A DNA stretch of 64,000 nt from an uncultured Gammaproteobacteria bacterium. Lineage in GTDB: Bacteria; Patescibacteriota; Microgenomatia; Levybacterales; GWA1-39-11. Shown piece by piece: positions 4,593-58,596 of the stretch. Under the pieces are notes generated by a model. That model searched no databases and was not told the DNA's origin. It worked only from the letters and a program-made list of their open reading frames with translations. Position 1 is the first letter of the stretch; every line of letters starts with the position of its first letter. The position numbers and the translations under genes were made by a program. Location of the stretch: contig CAZIAP010000001.1 in assembly GCA_964537315.1 (NCBI GenBank), forward strand, positions 23,975 to 87,974, read 5' to 3'.

Positions 4593-4808
4593 TTATGCAC
4601 GTCCGCCTTTCCTACCTGCAATCCTAGCCCTTTCAGGATCGTTCTTGAAGTTACCAGTGCTCGCACGTCCACCTTTGCTTCCGATCTCAGAGTAAAATTT
4701 TGAATCGTGAGACCGTGCAGTAGCCATACCGCCTTTTTGCCCTGCCTTTTTGTGACCTTCTGGATCACCGTGCCATCCTCGACCTTTTGATGCTGCCATA
4801 CAATACAC
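4593..4808 (-). CDS. KGG-repeat general-stress-type small protein (YciG-like)
   Basis: Repeated 'KGG' motifs ('AGQKGGMATA', 'IGSKGGRAST', 'AGRKGGRA'). Strong SD 'AAGGAGGTG' 7 nt upstream on the - strand. Confidence 0.6.
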   Translation of the reverse strand: MYCMAASKGRGWHGDPEGHKKAGQKGGMATARSHDSKFYSEIGSKGGRASTGNFKNDPERARIAGRKGGRA

Positions 4809-5084
4809 CTCCTTCTTTTAGTTTGTAGATTATCGTCTACAACTAAAACTTATTAATTAACATTACCAACCATGCTTTATAAAAGCATATGGTGCAAGTA
4901 AGAAATTGGAAAGACCATAAAGTAGCGTATAGAGGGTTTATGGGTTTAGGGTACAGCGGTTAGTTAATATAAATTAATTGAGAGACAATATGCATTAGAA
5001 TCTGAGCGCTAGAAGTTTTTTTACAAGGGGTTTTTTACAAGGTTGAACCTTTACTAGGCATGAGATAAAACGATTCAAGGATCA

Positions 5085-5116
5085 ACCTTTACAATTGACA
5101 ACCTTTACAATTGAAT
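5085..5116. repeat. Perfect tandem direct repeat 2 x 16 bp 'caacctttacaattga'
   Basis: Read directly; related 'gaacctttac' and 'aacctttaac' copies nearby. Confidence 0.8.
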
Positions 5117-5227: not shown

Positions 5228-6067
5228 TTAACTTTGTTCTATTCTTTGTAATTGAGCTGCTTGCAGAACATTCTGCAGTAGAAACGTGAGATTTAAGGGT
5301 CCTACTCCCCCAGGAGTAGGTGTATACACTGCTCCACTCTGTTTTGCGTCTCTATTTGTGAAATCGCCGCGAATTTTGTTGCCTTCTTTTCTAATACCAA
5401 CCCCAATCAGTACCTGATCTTTGTGCATTTGATCTTCTGATACTACTTGTTTGCCTGCACAGCTAATTACTATGTCAGATTCCTTGATAATTTTTTCAGG
5501 CTGTTTTGTTTTACTATCTATCACGTTTACATCTCCTCCTACAGTCTGCAACCCTTTTATAGTTGGCGCACCAGCTGTCTCACCTTTACCTATCACAGTG
5601 ATCTTTTTGCCTTTGAGGTACGACTGTAAGGAGTCTTCATAATTGGTTGATATATACTCTAGGATATATTTTACTGCGAGCCAGACTGGGACTTCGTAGG
5701 GTGAATCGGGTCTAAAACCATCTACATCTTTTTGAGGTTGAATGGCCTCGATTACTTGCTTTTTGTCAATATTTTCAGGCAGAGGTCGTTGTACTATGAT
5801 TCCGTGAGTATGCTTGTCAGCGTTTAATAAATCTATAGCATTGACTACCCCTTGTGTAGTTGAGTCTTTAAGATTATATACGCTTGCTTTAATTGAGAGT
5901 TTTTCTGCCCATTTCAGTTTTTGGTTAACGTAAGTTTGCCAACTCTCTTCTGTGCCGAGTGTAATAATCGCCAGATGAGGAGCTATGCCATTTGAAGTAA
6001 GTTTTTGAGCCTCGGCTTTTATAAGAGGGCGGATTTGGTCTGCAAGTTGGTTTCCTGATATTTCCAT
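5228..6067 (-). CDS. folD: Bifunctional methylenetetrahydrofolate dehydrogenase/cyclohydrolase
   Basis: 279 aa; Rossmann segment 'VIGKGETAGAPTIKGL' and C-terminal 'TPTPGGVGPLNLTFLLQNVL' match FolD architecture. Confidence 0.7.
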   Translation of the reverse strand: MEISGNQLADQIRPLIKAEAQKLTSNGIAPHLAIITLGTEESWQTYVNQKLKWAEKLSIKASVYNLKDSTTQGVVNAIDLLNADKHTHGIIVQRPLPENIDKKQVIEAIQPQKDVDGFRPDSPYEVPVWLAVKYILEYISTNYEDSLQSYLKGKKITVIGKGETAGAPTIKGLQTVGGDVNVIDSKTKQPEKIIKESDIVISCAGKQVVSEDQMHKDQVLIGVGIRKEGNKIRGDFTNRDAKQSGAVYTPTPGGVGPLNLTFLLQNVLQAAQLQRIEQS

Positions 6068-9413: not shown

Positions 9414-11378
<1,965 letters not shown>

Positions 11379-17069: not shown

Positions 17070-17825
17070 ATGGAACTTTTTTTAGCATCCGTTATATTTA
17101 TATTTGGTTCAATTTTCGGAAGCTTCGTTAACGTACTAATTGATCGCGTTCCGCAAGGGAAATTTTTTGATAATAAGAGGTCGTACTGTGAATCTTGTAA
17201 AAAAAGCTTAAGCTGGTACGATTTAATCCCATTATTTTCGTATATTATTCTTCGTGGTAAGTGTAGAAGATGTAAAAGTAAGATACCTTTTAGAATTTTT
17301 GTAGTTGAGTTATTAACTGGTCTTGGGTTTGTTGCACTCTACTCGCTTATCTATCAATCACTTCCTCTAATTAGCTTTATTATGATTGTTCTAACATTTT
17401 GTTTACTTACGGCTATATTTTTTATAGATGTAAAGCACAGAATCATTCCTAATTCACTACTTATTGCGATTTTGTTATGCACTCTGTTCTATCACATATT
17501 TGCAGGACATGACTTAATACCATACATAATTACAGGCATAGTATCATTTTTAGTTTTTTTCTTATTATTTGCCGTAACAAAAGGCAAAGGAATGGGTTTT
17601 GGGGACGTGAAGTTTGCTTTTGTAATAGGTTTTTTGCTTGGTTTTCCGGCTTCATTAATTGCTTTTTATGCTGCCTTCTTGACAGGAGCTGCTATCTCTA
17701 TCATACTGATAATAGCAGGAAAGAAAAAAGCAAGAGGCAGTGTAATTGCGTTCGGTCCATTTTTAATAATCGGAATTTTAATTGCGACGCTATTTACAGA
17801 TGAAATTATTAAAAAATTTTTTTAA
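17070..17825 (+). CDS. pilD: Prepilin peptidase (A24 family)
   Basis: N-terminal CxxC...CxxC Zn motif 'CESCKK...CRRCKS', multi-TM, 'GMGFGDVKF' catalytic Asp region. Confidence 0.85.
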   Translation: MELFLASVIFIFGSIFGSFVNVLIDRVPQGKFFDNKRSYCESCKKSLSWYDLIPLFSYIILRGKCRRCKSKIPFRIFVVELLTGLGFVALYSLIYQSLPLISFIMIVLTFCLLTAIFFIDVKHRIIPNSLLIAILLCTLFYHIFAGHDLIPYIITGIVSFLVFFLLFAVTKGKGMGFGDVKFAFVIGFLLGFPASLIAFYAAFLTGAAISIILIIAGKKKARGSVIAFGPFLIIGILIATLFTDEIIKKFF

Positions 17826-53258: not shown

Positions 53259-53572
53259 ATCGCCCTATTATACAGGTGAACAGGTTAAAATTCAAAATAT
53301 AAAGTAAAAAGTAGAAAAAGAGCCCATTGATGTTATCGCAGGGCTCGTAGAATTATTCTTTGTTATACTGCTCTGGTAAGAACCTAGAAAAAGGTTCAGC
53401 ATCGTTTGAATCGGGTTGGATTTTGAGAATTTTCTTAATCATATTGAAAATCCTATTAATCAACTTTCTCCCCCTTACTTCTAACCCAAGATAGACAACT
53501 CAATACACACAAAGAATATTACAGTTATTATAACACCAACTATAGGATTAATTAAAGAGTTATTGTGAGGTG

Positions 53573-53655
53573 TGCCCGAGAGAGGAGTTGAACCTCCACA
53601 CCGTTGCCGATACAGCGTTCTGAACACTGCGTGTCTACCATTCCACCACTCGGGC
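53573..53655 (-). tRNA. tRNA-Leu (anticodon CAG)
   Basis: - strand 'GCCCGAG TG GTG GAATGGTAGA CAC G CAGTG TTCAGAA CGCTG TATCGGCAACGGTGT GGAGG TTCAACT CCTCT CTCGGGC A': class II with long variable arm. Confidence 0.85.
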
Positions 53656-53714: not shown

Positions 53715-54347
53715 TTGACAAGCAAATACATCTATGGAAAGATAGAAGGAATGGACAAACGGATTATTCTGCTCGGTGTCTATTTGCTCACTGCTCCTGC
53801 TGCACTTTTCGTTCTTATCTTTTATACCCTTTACTATCACCATGAGCATACTCTGTCTCGTACACCTTCTGTAAAGGTGTTGAATTATAATGGTAATTTT
53901 GAAGCTCTACCTGACAATACTGTAAGCACATCAGCGATTAACCTACCAAGTACTGATGCCAGAATTGCAGCGCTGGATGACTTCTTTAAGAAGCACAAAT
54001 CCCCACTTGTCTCTCATAGCAAAATTATTGTTCAGCAGGCTGATGAATATGGGTTTGATTATCGGCTTCTACCTGCAATTGCCATGCAAGAAAGCAACCT
54101 GTGTAAAAAAATTCCTAAGGGAGCTGATCATAACTGTTGGGGTTTCGGTATATACGGAAAAAAACGTACTGGATTCGAATCGTATGATAGAGCTATACAA
54201 GTTATCTCTAAAACTCTTTCCGAGCAGTACATAAGTAAAGGTTTGGAAACTCCGGAGCAGATCATGTCCAAGTATACTCCTAACAGCAATGGTTCATGGG
54301 CAAATGGAGTTATTTACTTCATGAATCAAATCCACTCTAATATTTAG
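53715..54347 (+). CDS. Membrane-anchored lysozyme-like/glucosaminidase-like putative peptidoglycan hydrolase (paralog A)
   Basis: N-terminal TM; 'ADEYGFDYRLLPAIAMQESNLCKK...CWGFGIYG'; homologous to 54690..55241. Confidence 0.4.
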   Translation: MTSKYIYGKIEGMDKRIILLGVYLLTAPAALFVLIFYTLYYHHEHTLSRTPSVKVLNYNGNFEALPDNTVSTSAINLPSTDARIAALDDFFKKHKSPLVSHSKIIVQQADEYGFDYRLLPAIAMQESNLCKKIPKGADHNCWGFGIYGKKRTGFESYDRAIQVISKTLSEQYISKGLETPEQIMSKYTPNSNGSWANGVIYFMNQIHSNI

Positions 54348-54437
54348 CTGCTATATAGTGGTCCAAACTACAAGTGACCACTAAGGCAATTCCAGATTAG
54401 GCCGTATTTATGCTATTTTGAGCATTGTTTTACAGAC

Positions 54438-54466
54438 TTGACAGACTCATAGTTGTTTGCTATAAT
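54438..54466 (+). promoter_or_regulatory. Near-consensus sigma70-type promoter
   Basis: TTGACA (54438-54443), 17-nt spacer, TATAAT (54461-54466). Confidence 0.55.
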
Positions 54467-54689
54467 ACGTGCTAGGTCTCGAGGTAGCCCAAAACTTACT
54501 TTGAGACTCTTTAAAAGGACTGAATCAGTGGATATTTTTTATGTAAAAATCCACATCTCTACGAGGCGATTTAGTCCTTTTAAAGTTTTATAAGCATCTC
54601 CAACGTAGTTTTACCTCTGAGTTCCAAGAAAATATTTCATTATTTTTTTGGAGTCCCAGGTAAACGCATAATGCGAATCGGGATGCAAT

Positions 54690-55241
54690 ATGAAAAAACT
54701 TTTTATTCTTATCGCCTTTCTTCTTGCGGTAAGCGTTACACCTACAACCTTCGCGTCTGAAAAAATTGCAGGACGCTCAGCAACACTTTCTATTGAATCT
54801 AAACGTCAAACTGATAAGAACTTATCTAACGACGTGAGGGTTACTGCAGTTCAAAATGTACTGAAAAAGTATGATTCTATTCTAGTGCCTGAAGCAGAAA
54901 ACTTTGTGTACTATGCTGATAAGCACGGTATCGACTGGAGACTTCTGGTATCTATTTCAGGTCTTGAATCATATTTTGGTGCCCGGTATGTACAAGGGTC
55001 ATATAACGCCTATGGATGGGGTGGCGGATATATATACTTTGAAAGCTGGGAGGATGGTATAGACACTATTTCTTACGCGCTGAAAACGAAATATTATGAT
55101 CGTGGTGCAAATACTGTGGAAAAAATAGGTCCTATTTATGCTGAAAATCCTCATTGGGCAGAGCGCATATCACGTTTTATGACTCAAATTGATAAAGAGT
55201 ATATAAACCTGACTACCCTTGCTGCTGCTCCTCAGTTTTAG
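54690..55241 (+). CDS. Secreted lysozyme-like/glucosaminidase-like putative peptidoglycan hydrolase (paralog B)
   Basis: Signal peptide 'MKKLFILIAFLLAVSVTPTTFASE'; 'ADKHGIDWRLLVSISGLESYFGAR...AYGWGGGYIYF'. Confidence 0.4.
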   Translation: MKKLFILIAFLLAVSVTPTTFASEKIAGRSATLSIESKRQTDKNLSNDVRVTAVQNVLKKYDSILVPEAENFVYYADKHGIDWRLLVSISGLESYFGARYVQGSYNAYGWGGGYIYFESWEDGIDTISYALKTKYYDRGANTVEKIGPIYAENPHWAERISRFMTQIDKEYINLTTLAAAPQF

Positions 55242-55244
55242 AAA

Positions 55245-55267
55245 TGTCAAGAACCGATCTCGACAAG
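55245..55267. repeat. REP-like palindromic element, copy 1
   Basis: 'tgtcaagaaccgatctcgacaag'. Confidence 0.7.
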
Positions 55268-55298
55268 CACTTCGCATTCACATGCAAAGTATTGTATT

Positions 55299-55321
55299 TG
55301 TCAAGAACCGATCTTGACAAG
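55299..55321. repeat. REP-like palindromic element, copy 2 (perfect 8-bp stem)
   Basis: 'tgtcaagaaccgatcttgacaag'. Confidence 0.7.
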
Positions 55322-55349
55322 TTGGATGTGACAGCTCATAACTGATAGT

Positions 55350-56018
55350 ATGTCGTCTCGATATACCGTTAGAAGTTTTTCTAAAAACTGTGTGTATCAC
55401 GCATATAATCGTGGCGTTGAAAAAAGAGATATATTTCTTGATGAATCTGACTGTAGAATATTCCTATTTTACCTTAAGCTCTATTTATCTCCTATAGAAG
55501 CATTAAAGACTCAAAAAATTCCTGGACTTAGGTTAGATAAAATTCTTAAGAATAACTTATCAGAAGAAACTGATCTTCTTTCCTATGCATTAATGCCAAA
55601 CCATTTTCACTTACTGATTAAACAAAAAACTACCAATGGTACTACAAAGTTAATGAAGCGAATGTCTGTTGCATATGCAATGTATTTTAATAAAAAGTAC
55701 AATAGGGTGGGTCCGTTATTTCAGGGAATTTATAAGTCTGTGCTTATCACAACAGACGAACAAATGCTCCATGTATCGCGCTATATCCATCTTAATGCCT
55801 TTGAGATAAAGTCAAATATAGATTTCAAAAAGTTTTCTAGTTACGCTTGGTATTTAAATGCAAATCCACCATCGTGGATACATCCTGACATAATTACTGA
55901 GTACTTTAGAAGTGTGAAAAAAATAAGTAATAACGATATGTTATCGTACCAGAGTTTTGTAGAAGACCATACTCAGCCATCAAAAGAACTACTTGGCGAA
56001 TTAACATTAGAAGACTAA
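55350..56018 (+). mobile_element. REP-associated tyrosine transposase (RAYT, IS200/IS605-like Y1 HUH transposase)
   Basis: HUH motif 'PNHFHLLIKQ'; catalytic Tyr region 'VSRYIHLNAFE'; 222 aa; flanked by REP-like hairpins. Confidence 0.65.
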
Positions 56019-56043
56019 GTTTTTTGTGCTCAATGTCAAGAAC

Positions 56044-56066
56044 CGATCTCGACATATTTGGAGGTA
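56044..56066. repeat. REP-like palindromic element, copy 3
   Basis: 'tgtcaagaaccgatctcgacata'. Confidence 0.7.
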
Positions 56067-56164
56067 TGATCTGAGGGGGGTTGTGTATCGGGTGCATACG
56101 CTAAAATTTGTTTAATATTTCGATTGCAGTTTGTAGGTGGAAAAATGTATAATGTGAGTCGTGA

Positions 56165-56247
56165 GCGGGCGTGGTGAAATGGTATACACGCTAGTTTTAG
56201 GAACTAGTGGCCGCAAGGCCGTGGGGGTTCAAGTCCTCTCGCCCGCA
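56165..56247 (+). tRNA. tRNA-Leu (anticodon TAG)
   Basis: 'GCGGGCG TG GTG AAATGGTATA CAC G CTAGT TTTAGGA ACTAG TGGCCGCAAGGCCGT GGGGG TTCAAGT CCTCT CGCCCGC A'; possible promoter TTGCAG-18-TATAAT upstream. Confidence 0.85.
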
Positions 56248-56293
56248 CTAAAATGGATTAAAGCTGTTTATCCTCGTTTAGTAAACTCGAATT

Positions 56294-56656
56294 ATGAAAC
56301 CCAAAAGTGTTGACGAATACATTGAAAATTTTCCACAAGATCAGAAAGAAAAGCTGATAGAGCTACGAAAGATTATAAAAACTACACTGCCTGATACAAA
56401 GGAAGCACTCAAATGGGGTGATCCAGCAGTCTTGGATAAAGATGGAATGATCTTAGTAATTTATGGTGGATATAAACAACACATGAATCTTGTTGCTACA
56501 CCAAGCACTAAACAGGCGTTAGAAAATGAATTGTCAGATTACAAAACTGGTAAAGGTTCCGTTCAGTTACATTATGATAAACCACTGCCGGTTACTTTGA
56601 TTAAAAAAATCTTGTTATACAGAGCCAAAGAATATCGTGAACAAGGTGTTAAGTGA
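56294..56656 (+). CDS. DUF1801/YdhG-like small protein
   Basis: 'KPKSVDEYIENFPQDQKEKLIELRKIIKTTLPD...LKWG' typical DUF1801 N-terminus. Confidence 0.45.
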   Translation: MKPKSVDEYIENFPQDQKEKLIELRKIIKTTLPDTKEALKWGDPAVLDKDGMILVIYGGYKQHMNLVATPSTKQALENELSDYKTGKGSVQLHYDKPLPVTLIKKILLYRAKEYREQGVK

Positions 56657-56845
56657 AAGTGATTGAATAGGTCTATAATCTACTCACCTATTGTCATTTC
56701 TTCCTGTATTCTTACTGTATTTTTTGATTATTCTCGTTCGATTTCCTTACTATCTAGTTAGTTATTTCAATTTAATGTACCGAATGTATACAAGGTGTCT
56801 TTGTGCAAATATCACAAGCATACCAAGTAAAAGGAGGTGAACTAT

Positions 56846-56998
56846 ATGACTGATGTGTTAAGAGACAAAGATGATTTAAAAAAACGGGAAGAAATAATCG
56901 ATGATGAAGAAGGCGAAGCAGGTGGAGAGGCAGAGTATGACGCAGATATCAACGAAACAACTGATGATCTGATCGAGACTGATGACGATAGGATGTAA
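56846..56998 (+). CDS. Small highly acidic protein (50 aa, not in the ORF track)
   Basis: Consensus SD 'AAAGGAGGTG' 8 nt upstream of the ATG; translation 'MTDVLRDKDDLKKREEIIDDEEGEAGGEAEYDADINETTDDLIETDDDRM'. Confidence 0.35.
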   Translation: MTDVLRDKDDLKKREEIIDDEEGEAGGEAEYDADINETTDDLIETDDDRM

Positions 56999-57169
56999 AT
57001 GGCTAGCGCAGGAGATATGTCCCGCGCTAGGATAATATGCCAAAGCGCTATTTACTCAAAGAATTAAGAGATACATTCCGTTATATCAAAAATGGGTTAG
57101 GAAATATTCGCGGAAAAAAAGGCGGAGAACAAGAAATTAAAGAGGACGAAGAGGTTCAAATAAAAGAAA

Positions 57170-58033
57170 ATGACACAAAAACCAACACCCCCACAACCGA
57201 AACAAACTCTCGATACTAGACCAGGGAAAGAACACGAGATGGTTCAAAAACCTGAGTATTATGGAGAAGATTATAAGCCTGCCGGGAAATTAGAAGGAAA
57301 AATTGCAATTATTACCGGCGGTGATAGTGGAATTGGACGCTCGGTTGCTGTGCTTTTTGCGCGAGAAGGAGCGGATATTGCTATCGCCTATCTTAATGAG
57401 CATAAAGATGCTCAAAAAACTCAACAAGAGGTTGAAAAGGTAGGAAAAAAATGTATTGCTATTTCCGGTGACCTTGGTGAAGAATCACACGCTAATGATG
57501 TCGTAAGCCAGGTGATACAAGAATTCGGGTCATTGGATATATTAGTCAATAATGCTGCCGAGCAGCATCCACAGGAAAGCATTTCTGATATTTCTTCTGA
57601 GCAGCTTGAAAGGACTTTTAGAACAAATATTTTTGCATATTTTTACTTAACTAAAGCTGCTCTATCCCATCTGAAATCAGGAAGTACCATTATTAACACT
57701 ACTTCCGTTACAGCTTACAGAGGAAGCGATCATTTAATTGATTACGCATCTACTAAAGGTGCAATTGTTGCTTTTACACGCTCACTTGCAAGTCAGTTGG
57801 CTGAAAAGAATATTAGAGTCAATGGCGTTGCTCCGGGTCCTATTTGGACTCCGTTAATACCCTCTACTTTCCCTGAAAATCATGTTGAAAAGTTTGGAGA
57901 AAAAGAGCCTTTAGGTCGTCCCGGTCAACCTGATGAAGTTGCACCAAGTTATGTATTTTTAGCCTCACAGGATTCTTCTTACATGACAGGTCAGGTACTC
58001 CACCCTAACGGCGGGGAAATTATAAACGGATAG
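57170..58033 (+). CDS. SDR-family oxidoreductase, YghA/YdaD (general stress protein 39)-like
   Basis: 'GKIAIITGGDSGIGRSVA' NAD(P) site, 'NNAA', Y-x3-K; N-terminal Pro/Lys-rich extension typical of YghA. Confidence 0.8.
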   Translation: MTQKPTPPQPKQTLDTRPGKEHEMVQKPEYYGEDYKPAGKLEGKIAIITGGDSGIGRSVAVLFAREGADIAIAYLNEHKDAQKTQQEVEKVGKKCIAISGDLGEESHANDVVSQVIQEFGSLDILVNNAAEQHPQESISDISSEQLERTFRTNIFAYFYLTKAALSHLKSGSTIINTTSVTAYRGSDHLIDYASTKGAIVAFTRSLASQLAEKNIRVNGVAPGPIWTPLIPSTFPENHVEKFGEKEPLGRPGQPDEVAPSYVFLASQDSSYMTGQVLHPNGGEIING

Positions 58034-58116
58034 TTATAATTTTTCACGATAATTTTCATTGATATTAAGTAATATTTCTTGTAAAATGTAAGCCACCCTT
58101 CAGGAATGGAAATATG

Positions 58117-58200
58117 GGCTGATGGCGAAACTGGTAGACGCGCAGTCTTGAGGGGGCTGTACCGCAAGGTGTGGAGGTTCAAGTCCTCTTCAGCCCACCA
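58117..58200 (+). tRNA. tRNA-Leu (anticodon GAG), CCA encoded
   Basis: 'GGGCTGA TG GCG AAACTGGTAGA CGC G CAGTC TTGAGGG GGCTG TACCGCAAGGTGT GGAGG TTCAAGT CCTCT TCAGCCC ACCA'. Confidence 0.85.
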
Positions 58201-58279
58201 AACGTTTCACATTAAACTACTTTTATTACCTTCGTACGTATGTTAAAATGATCTCTGATATAGGGTTAATCTTATATTT

Positions 58280-58354
58280 GGGCGCTTAGCTCAGCTGGTT
58301 TAGAGCGCCTCGTTTACACCGAGGAGGTCAGGGGTTCGAATCCCTTAGCGCCCA
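58280..58354 (+). tRNA. tRNA-Val (anticodon TAC)
   Basis: 'GGGCGCT TAGCTCAGCTGGTTTAGAGCG CCTCG TTTACAC CGAGG AGGTC AGGGG TTCGAAT CCCTT AGCGCCC A'. Confidence 0.85.
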
Positions 58355-58410
58355 CTCTTCATTACGTCCACTGTAGACAATAACAGGTTTACATCAAACG
58401 AATGTGAGAT

Positions 58411-58483
58411 GCCGAGATTGCCAAGTTGGTCAAGGCGCTTGTCTGAAGAACAAGTTATGCGGGTTCGATTCCTGCTCTCGGCA
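58411..58483 (+). tRNA. tRNA-Phe (anticodon GAA)
   Basis: 'GCCGAGA TT GCC AAGTTGGTCAA GGC G CTTGT CTGAAGA ACAAG TTAT GCGGG TTCGATT CCTGC TCTCGGC A'. Confidence 0.85.
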
Positions 58484-58521
58484 CAACTGACAATAAAGGA
58501 AGCCTTGATTTTCCTTAAAAA

Positions 58522-58596
58522 GCGGCGGTAGTTCAGCGGTAGAATGCTTCCTTGCCAAGGAAGATGTCGCCGGTTCGATCCCGGTCCGCCGCTCCA
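58522..58596 (+). tRNA. tRNA-Gly (anticodon GCC), CCA encoded
   Basis: 'GCGGCGG TAGTTCAGCGGTAGAATG CTTCC TTGCCAA GGAAG ATGTC GCCGG TTCGATC CCGGT CCGCCGC TCCA'. Confidence 0.85.

Follow-up and report, generated by a model that had tools for sequence, protein, structure and literature searches.

A probable REPtron/TIRtron-like unit from the candidate phyla radiation: an HUH/Y1 enzyme gene in a cassette with three copies of its own DNA hairpin

Repetitive extragenic palindromes (REPs) and the REP-associated tyrosine transposases (RAYTs) offer the standard example of how a transposase, once domesticated, coexists with non-autonomous repeats of its own. To our knowledge, nearly all descriptions of such systems concern Proteobacteria, Cyanobacteria and Bacteroidetes. 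Here we analyse a locus from a 64-kb stretch of contig CAZIAP010000001.1 (assembly GCA_964537315.1), hereafter the window, in which an intact, single-copy gene for an HUH/tyrosine (Y1) transposase stands in an 810-bp cassette together with its own 21-nt DNA hairpin, which is present three times. We consider it probable that this cassette is a REPtron/TIRtron-like unit, i.e. the gene of a RAYT-related HUH/Y1 single-stranded-DNA endonuclease-ligase of class 2, similar to subclass 2.1, accompanied by its own cognate hairpins. RAYT and TIRYT genes with flanking repeats are a known kind, and the window element taken alone is an ordinary single-copy cassette. Subclass 2.1 corresponds to the Group 1 RAYTs of Bertels et al. 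(2017, PMC5581495; equated by Quentin et al. 2018, PMC6006769), and most TIRYT proteins of Di Nocera et al. (2013, PMC3733652) fall into it as well. Its characteristics are a length of ~238 aa, the motifs NH[YF]H, FQ and Y[IV]HLNP, and an SS-containing proximal tail (PMC6006769 Table 1). Quentin et al. reported REP insertions inside the gene for subclass 2.4 only, and detected no REP-like hairpins in subclass 2.1 (PMC6006769). Published REP families usually have >100 copies per genome (PMC2817692).

By comparison of its motifs with PMC6006769 Table 1, the window protein appears to be a RAYT-related Y1 enzyme of class 2 that resembles subclass 2.1/TIRYT. It shares with this group NHFH, LFQG, YIHLNA and a tail with FSSY, a similar length (222 aa versus about 220-240 aa) and, apparently, a low copy number per genome. 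Unlike subclass 2.1, it has no distal C-terminal helix-turn-helix (HTH) domain (Bac_DnaA_C, HTH_23, HTH_28) according to Pfam. As the initial annotation of this DNA had pointed out, the open reading frame (ORF) carries the HFHLL and SRYIHLN motifs: MPNHFHLL provides the HUH residues H85 and H87, and SRYIHLN the catalytic Tyr145. The score with the Pfam family Y1_Tnp (PF01797) is 37.2 bits (cutoff 23; E 3.6e-9), and no other Pfam family is matched at E<=0.01, distal HTH or DnaA_C-like domains included. Invariant features of an alignment of 27 homologues are H85, H87, Y145, an N-terminal block (YNRG..KR.IF.D) and the C-terminal tail with FSSY. The tyrosine motif is YIHLNP in most of the 27, with other residues at the last position in a few; the window has YIHLNA, where P is replaced by A. 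The initial annotation had named a degenerate IS200 relic, in which the repeat would occur only here and the catalytic Tyr would be lost, as the outcome that would refute it. In the window the repeat is indeed found only here, but Tyr and HUH are intact, the ORF is full length and every invariant residue is present; a relic is therefore ruled out.

The fold predicted by AlphaFold2 (pLDDT 88, pTM 0.87) is RAYT-like. With Foldseek, the best PDB match of the model is 4ER8, the E. coli RAYT-REP complex (E 1e-5, 178 columns), followed in the structural ranking by ISDra2, IS608 and IS200 transposases; the top 12 PDB matches (E<=1e-3, probability 1.00) are all RAYT, ISDra2 TnpA or IS608 TnpA. A single-sequence search of the PDB gave noise only. 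A profile search gave a weak match to ISDra2 TnpA with HUH and Tyr aligned, and hhalign against E. coli RayT was likewise weak (E 0.033), with HUH, [W/F]Q and Y---NP in register.

A search of 5.8 billion proteins returned 7853 matches at E<=1e-3, the nearest of which is 64% identical. The best 120 of these 7853 are 50-64% identical over their full length, measure ~224 aa and mostly occur on one or few contigs. Where the source name of one of these 120 proteins identifies a taxon, that taxon is in all cases a lineage of the candidate phyla radiation (CPR), including Daviesbacteria, Curtissbacteria, Shapirobacteria, Levybacteria and Nealsonbacteria. The assignment to a CPR-like genome made at the outset is borne out by these homologues from Patescibacteria. 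The accompanying remark that such a gene is notable there was misleading: the Y1 family is abundant in CPR and not exceptional in that radiation.

The hairpin of the window reads TGTCAAGA-ACCGA-TCTTGACA and comprises 21 nt (8+5+8). Its three copies, two upstream and one downstream of the gene as initially described, lie at -105, -51 and +16 relative to the Y1 gene and fit TGTCAAGA-ACCGA-TCT(T/C)GACA, the loop ACCGA lying on the + strand in every copy (Table 1). The element had been introduced as a 23-bp palindrome; the palindrome and its ACCGA loop stand, whereas the length has to be corrected, as 23 nt is only the stretch AATGTCAAGAACCGATCTCGACA that is identical in copies 1 and 3 (55243-55265 and 56032-56054). 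The perfect stem ascribed to copy 2 was recovered (DNA fold -8.0 kcal/mol, z -5.3). An A.C mismatch in the stem is common to copies 1 and 3; on the - strand it becomes a G.T pair, so that this strand folds better. Copy 1 starts 3 nt past the stop codon of the glucosaminidase-like gene that precedes it, and the core of copy 3, with the sequence and mismatch of copy 1, lies 16 nt past the Y1 stop. The two upstream copies are direct repeats, so that the BIME-like (bacterial interspersed mosaic element) pairing envisaged earlier, i.e. an inverted pair as in BIMEs or REPINs, is not found. Between copies 1 and 2 (55266-55298) there is an unrelated third stem-loop, on the - strand CTTTGCATGTGAATGCGAAG, with 9 pairs, G.T among them; for the 86-nt upstream region the folding energy is -18.0 kcal/mol (z -4.2) on the - strand versus -14.1 kcal/mol on the + strand.

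What links the hairpin to the gene is the situation in relatives. We sampled 80 related loci from species-representative genomes, all of them CPR or mislabelled CPR metagenome-assembled genomes (MAGs), with +/-10 kb per genome, and added the loci of the closest proteins. A short repeat common to the 200 nt upstream and the 200 nt downstream of the Y1 gene is present in 63 of the 81 usable loci, with scores of 13-58; control flanks paired across loci gave a mean score of 8.5 and a maximum of 11. The repeats are compact stem-loops or inverted doublets thereof, typically located 30-70 nt before the ATG and 1-40 nt past the stop. Within a locus the repeats agree completely or almost completely, between species their sequences differ while architecture and distances are kept, and their type tracks the protein clade. 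The main clade has hairpins of the AAGG..CCTT or AGGGTC..GACCCT types and a paralogous clade with a shorter N-terminus those of the CCACC..GGTGG types. In the subclade of the window (the window itself, L086, L089 and L090) the hairpins conform to TGTC-WAG..CTWGACA and look homologous. Their stems show a few apparent compensatory changes, in only six sequences (A-T in the window, T-A in L086, G-C in L089), and the distal and downstream copies frequently have a mismatch at position 5/17. Two paralogues of one genome (L043 and L055) have different hairpins. Since 63 of 81 loci have species-specific flanking hairpins and paralogues each have their own type, the flanking hairpins are, as far as sequence comparison can tell, cognate elements of the Y1 gene. 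The conserved association of gene and species-specific hairpin is itself an observation.

The proximal hairpin coincides with a promoter-like element. The 3' arm of copy 2 contains TTGACA (55314-55319), a -35-like hexamer located 36 nt before the ATG; in the window only this copy holds it, copies 1 and 3 reading TCGACA. An exact TTGACA between -75 and -25 is present in 32 of 82 Y1 genes (39%) versus 8.5% of 656 control ORFs, and in 27 of the 32 it lies at -34 to -37 from the ATG. In the relatives the hexamer is part of the proximal hairpin or abuts it. At the Y1 loci it is usually followed after 16-18 nt by a TAnnnT-like hexamer, and there is no Shine-Dalgarno sequence. The window has CATAAC 17 nt after TTGACA and no visible Shine-Dalgarno sequence; at the same spacing the relatives have CATAAA, GATAAA, AAGAAT or TATAAT. 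The spacing of the -10-like hexamer and the missing Shine-Dalgarno sequence therefore imply a leaderless-type transcript. In the window, CATAAC would place the putative transcription start at or next to the ATG, which would give a leaderless-type mRNA.

Hairpins of the relatives are not confined to the flanks. In about a dozen related loci cognate hairpins stand in frame within the Y1 gene, at two permissive loops. One loop is just after YIHLNP (L012, L024, L027, L036, L038, L042, L043, L071), the other at aa 55-65 (L012, L019, L024, L070, L080, L048). The insertions are located at 10182/10478 in L012, 10174/10453 in L024, 10461 in L071 and 2170 in L048, and at gene offset +489 in L036, L042 and L043 and +490 in L038; the window Y1 gene has no in-frame hairpin insertion. 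Solo or paired cognate copies were also found 1-9 kb from the Y1 gene, intergenic or in frame in unrelated genes. Distant copies of the own hairpin number 14 in 792 kb (17.7/Mb) versus 2.4/Mb for foreign hairpins used as a control. In L012, hairpins at 17620 and 18676 are in frame in a hydrolase-like and an aminotransferase-like host ORF, and the hairpin-encoded TRSDL occurs in these two host ORFs as well as in the Y1 gene. For the hairpins of L042 (4268/6889) and L038 (16226/16249), overlap with open reading frames of at least 80 aa is all that is shown. Overall, the behaviour of the hairpins in relatives is REP-like at low density.

The window also contains a second family of small hairpins, at 5039-5060 and 5077-5089 (AAGGTTGAACCTT then ACTAGGCA, and AAGGATCAACCTT), in the intergenic region between an ORF at 4593-4808 and a folD-like ORF at 5228-6067. 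In L048 it is this family that represents the cognate hairpin of the Y1 gene, in flanking, internal and distant positions, and its presence at 5039-5089 of the window suggests a second Y1 paralogue elsewhere in the source genome, now or in the past.

The cassette behaves as a unit. In L092, L093 and L094 the upstream glucosaminidase-like gene is 77-80% identical and the synteny from this gene to tRNA-Leu(tag) is kept, without a Y1 cassette. Homology with these cassette-free relatives stops at the 55241 stop codon and resumes at ~56093, where the promoter region of tRNA-Leu lies; the intervening ~850 bp, with copies 1 and 3 as their bounds, are thus either wholly present or wholly absent. At the empty sites there are small hairpins of a different type (AAGGTTGAACCTT, AAGGATCAACCTT, AAGGTCGGACCTT), one to three in number, and the second hairpin family of the window also fills the cassette-free site upstream of tRNA-Leu in L092 and L093. 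The five closest Y1 homologues (60-64% identical) are all located between uvrA and uvrB, on the opposite strand. Closest homologues sited between uvrA and uvrB and next to lexA are those of L002, L003, L066, L086, L089 and L090, with L006 and L065 nearby. In L065 uvrB and uvrA are adjacent. Neither uvrA nor uvrB is present in the 64-kb window. From the cassette-free relatives and the position of the closest homologues it follows that the cassette as a whole has changed its location.

Even between genomes with UvrB only 58-60% identical, the gene has retained its place in the order uvrA-Y1-uvrB. Y1 identity is 60-72% where that of UvrB is 84-87%, but 92% where UvrB is 84% identical. Clock-like co-divergence of Y1 and UvrB was thus not seen, and because the divergences are disproportionate, strict vertical descent cannot be claimed. 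The siting may go back to old vertical inheritance, to a preferred insertion site or to a link with DNA repair. The last idea, prompted by the neighbouring genes, was not retained, as the more distant homologues and the window cassette are in unrelated contexts.

As to binding, cleavage chemistry, active strand and autoregulation, we infer the following. The Y1 protein would recognise the 21-nt stem-loop in single-stranded DNA, for example at a replication fork, and cut next to it by means of Tyr145 and an HUH-bound metal, after which the ends could be rejoined. Over evolutionary time, hairpins would be copied or moved, and occasionally the whole hairpin-gene-hairpin cassette. Copies 1 and 3, with their identical 23 nt, would mark the cassette ends and could allow such rare relocation. 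The proximal hairpin may serve as an operator: because copy 2 and the -35 box of a putative leaderless-type promoter overlap, Y1 protein bound there probably represses its own gene.

Several observations weigh against a REPtron/TIRtron-like unit. No hairpin was found beyond the gene flanks in the 64-kb window with up to 3 mismatches (0 expected in 100 shuffles), so that the element, initially called REP-like, is not repetitive in the window, and the dispersal observed is that in relatives. When the 21-mer (TGTCRAGAACCGATCTYGACA, TGTCAAGAACCGATCTYGACA) was searched in the contigs of species-representative genomes, 0 matches were obtained; the source genome is evidently not among them. The same scan of metagenome contigs gave 0 matches as well. 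Since the hairpin of L089 (a JGI contig), used as a control, also had 0 matches there, the metagenome scans are uninformative rather than negative, the collection being without that sample. The sole NCBIfam match of the protein, NF047646 (REP_Tyr_transpos), reaches 34.7 bits against a curated cutoff of 80, and neither GTAG nor GTGG (the GT[AG]G tag) is present at the hairpin foot in any of the three copies on either strand. Upstream and downstream copies are direct repeats in 28 loci, the window included, but inverted in 13 and mixed in 5; therefore, no single strand logic applies to the whole family. A consensus promoter scan made no call in the window because the last base of the hexamer is not T; the -10 element CATAAC is weak, and the window promoter is thus putative.

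These results also determine how the locus compares with the canonical REP/RAYT systems, i.e. E. coli RayT/TnpA-REP (4ER8) and subclasses 2.2, 2.4 and 2.5. The initial annotation had called the protein a REP-associated tyrosine transposase. Membership in the RAYT-related class stands, in view of the class-2 motifs and the 4ER8 match; a canonical RAYT it is not, because the REP_Tyr_transpos score is below cutoff and the GT[AG]G guide tag is missing. The canonical systems provide the best structural match and motifs that align with those of E. coli RayT, and as in a canonical REPtron a gene that is single-copy in the window is flanked by its own cognate palindromes. In the relatives, each paralogue has its own hairpin family, and hairpins occur as inverted, REPIN-like doublets, as dispersed solo copies and in frame inside the transposase gene, again as in canonical REP/RAYT systems. 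Unlike these, the window protein has F in place of W in the WQ motif, the upstream pair is direct instead of inverted, and distant copies amount to ~18 per Mb of neighbouring DNA in relatives, with none dispersed in the window. The motifs of the window protein do not fit the E. coli-type subclass 2.2. As for TIRtrons, the short repeats likewise bracket the gene at roughly fixed distances, and some TIRs are self-complementary and members of small repeat families. Published TIRs, however, have GGGGWSAS, whereas the window flanks lack this motif and are direct rather than inverted; the flanks of the family are compact stem-loops of 13-21 nt, and the proximal copy in the window holds a -35 box.

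IS200 elements have a size of ~0.7 kb. The locus could, in principle, be an autonomous minimal IS200-type insertion sequence (IS), an 810-bp unit with copies 1 and 3 as the subterminal hairpins of the left and right ends (LE/RE) and with peel-and-paste self-movement as its only activity. We regard this as unlikely, although several features agree with it. The enzyme has the HUH/Y1 fold of the IS200/IS605 group (IS200, IS608, ISDra2; subclass 1.1), the unit is compact, with 810 bp close to IS200 in size, and has moved at least once, terminal inverted repeats are not needed, and subterminal hairpins on the same strand at both ends, identical over 23 nt, correspond to the end layout of these elements. 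The unit is present or absent as a whole between close relatives at a locus that differs from that of the closest homologues, and the GC content of the gene is 32.4% versus 38.4% +/- 2.8% in the window. Moreover, Group 1 RAYTs (subclass 2.1 according to Quentin et al., PMC6006769) are rated among the most IS-like RAYT groups (PMC5581495). On the other hand, the tyrosine motif is the class-2 Y---N(P/A) and not the Y---Q of IS200 transposases, and the 222-aa protein has an extra tail of ~70 aa, whereas subclass 1.1 proteins are core-only with ~150 aa. There is no tnpB, and the 64-kb window has a single copy instead of multiple near-identical ones. With the nearest of 5.8 billion proteins only 64% identical and each variant on few contigs, the family does not fit an actively spreading IS. 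Paralogues of the same genome, each ~35-50% identical to the query, have different hairpin types, and in the relatives hairpins spread without the gene. The uvrA-uvrB position has been kept long-term, and hardly any homologues were found among plasmids (11 of 72,556 records, <=37% identity), among phages (1 record) or in IMG/VR (1 distant locus).

Less probable still is the idea that the hairpins are ordinary transcription signals (terminator, operator/insulator or 3' stabiliser) and not enzyme substrates, the Y1 activity being unrelated or lost. It would agree with the location of copies 1 and 3 close behind stop codons and of copy 2 over the -35 box, with the restriction of the hairpins to the gene in the window, and with the known role of REPs as terminators and mRNA stabilisers. 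A terminator function was rejected, since no copy is followed by a T-run and a terminator scan made no call. Terminators do not need sequence identity, yet copies 1 and 3 agree in every one of 23 nt, and identity within a genome combined with difference between genomes recurs in 63 loci. In-frame hairpins within coding sequences of relatives would be left unexplained, and the catalytic residues are invariant.

A broader proposal can be put forward tentatively. CPR/Patescibacteria may possess a widespread, undescribed REP-like system in which subclass-2.1-like Y1 enzymes each co-evolve with a hairpin of 13-21 nt. This hairpin would bracket the gene, form its -35 box, insert in frame in the enzyme and in host proteins, scatter at low density and occasionally carry the gene along, and the window cassette would be a relocated instance. 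A full-text literature search found no published papers linking RAYT, REPIN or TIRYT with CPR or Patescibacteria. If the pattern holds, a RAYT-related clade in reduced CPR genomes keeps species-specific hairpins and seeds intergenic as well as coding DNA with them. The phenomenon would then reach into a major radiation of uncultivated bacteria as well as a subclass without previously found cognate hairpins, and a compact enzyme and its 21-nt substrate would form a biochemically testable pair. The value for annotation is modest: genes of this kind in CPR MAGs are better termed RAYT-like or TIRYT-like than 'IS200 transposase'.

Table 1. Features of the cassette and its immediate surroundings (window coordinates)
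Feature	Position	Strand	Remarks
Copy 1, distal upstream hairpin	55243..55265	+	core 55245-55265 = TGTCAAGAACCGATCTCGACA; A.C stem mismatch; left cassette boundary
Copy 2, proximal upstream hairpin	55299..55319	+	perfect 8-9 bp stem; loop ACCGA
Putative -10 hexamer CATAAC	55337..55342	+	inferred, read from sequence
HUH/Y1 enzyme gene, RAYT-related class 2 (resembling subclass 2.1), 222 aa	55350..56018	+	core domain and ~70-aa C-terminal tail
Copy 3, downstream hairpin	56032..56054	+	core 56034-56054; right cassette boundary
Glucosaminidase-like gene, upstream neighbour	54690-55241		stop codon at 55241
tRNA-Leu(tag)	56165-56248		Rfam match

The tRNA-Leu that had been noted beside the cassette is tRNA-Leu(tag), and an Rfam search of 54000-57500 gave no match besides this tRNA. 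With a tRNA-Leu(cag) at 53572-53655 and a cluster of four tRNAs (Leu-gag, Val-tac, Phe-gaa, Gly-gcc) at 58116-58596, 2 kb downstream, the cassette is located in a tRNA-rich stretch. On its 5' side are two tandem paralogous glucosaminidase-like genes (53715-54347 and 54690-55241), a pair that is kept in L092 and L094. Directly 3' of tRNA-Leu(tag) lies a 120-aa ORF (56294-56656), which is missing in the otherwise syntenic L093. There the tRNA is followed directly by an acidic ORF of 53-69 aa and a short-chain dehydrogenase/reductase (SDR) gene, which makes a second small indel at the same tRNA.

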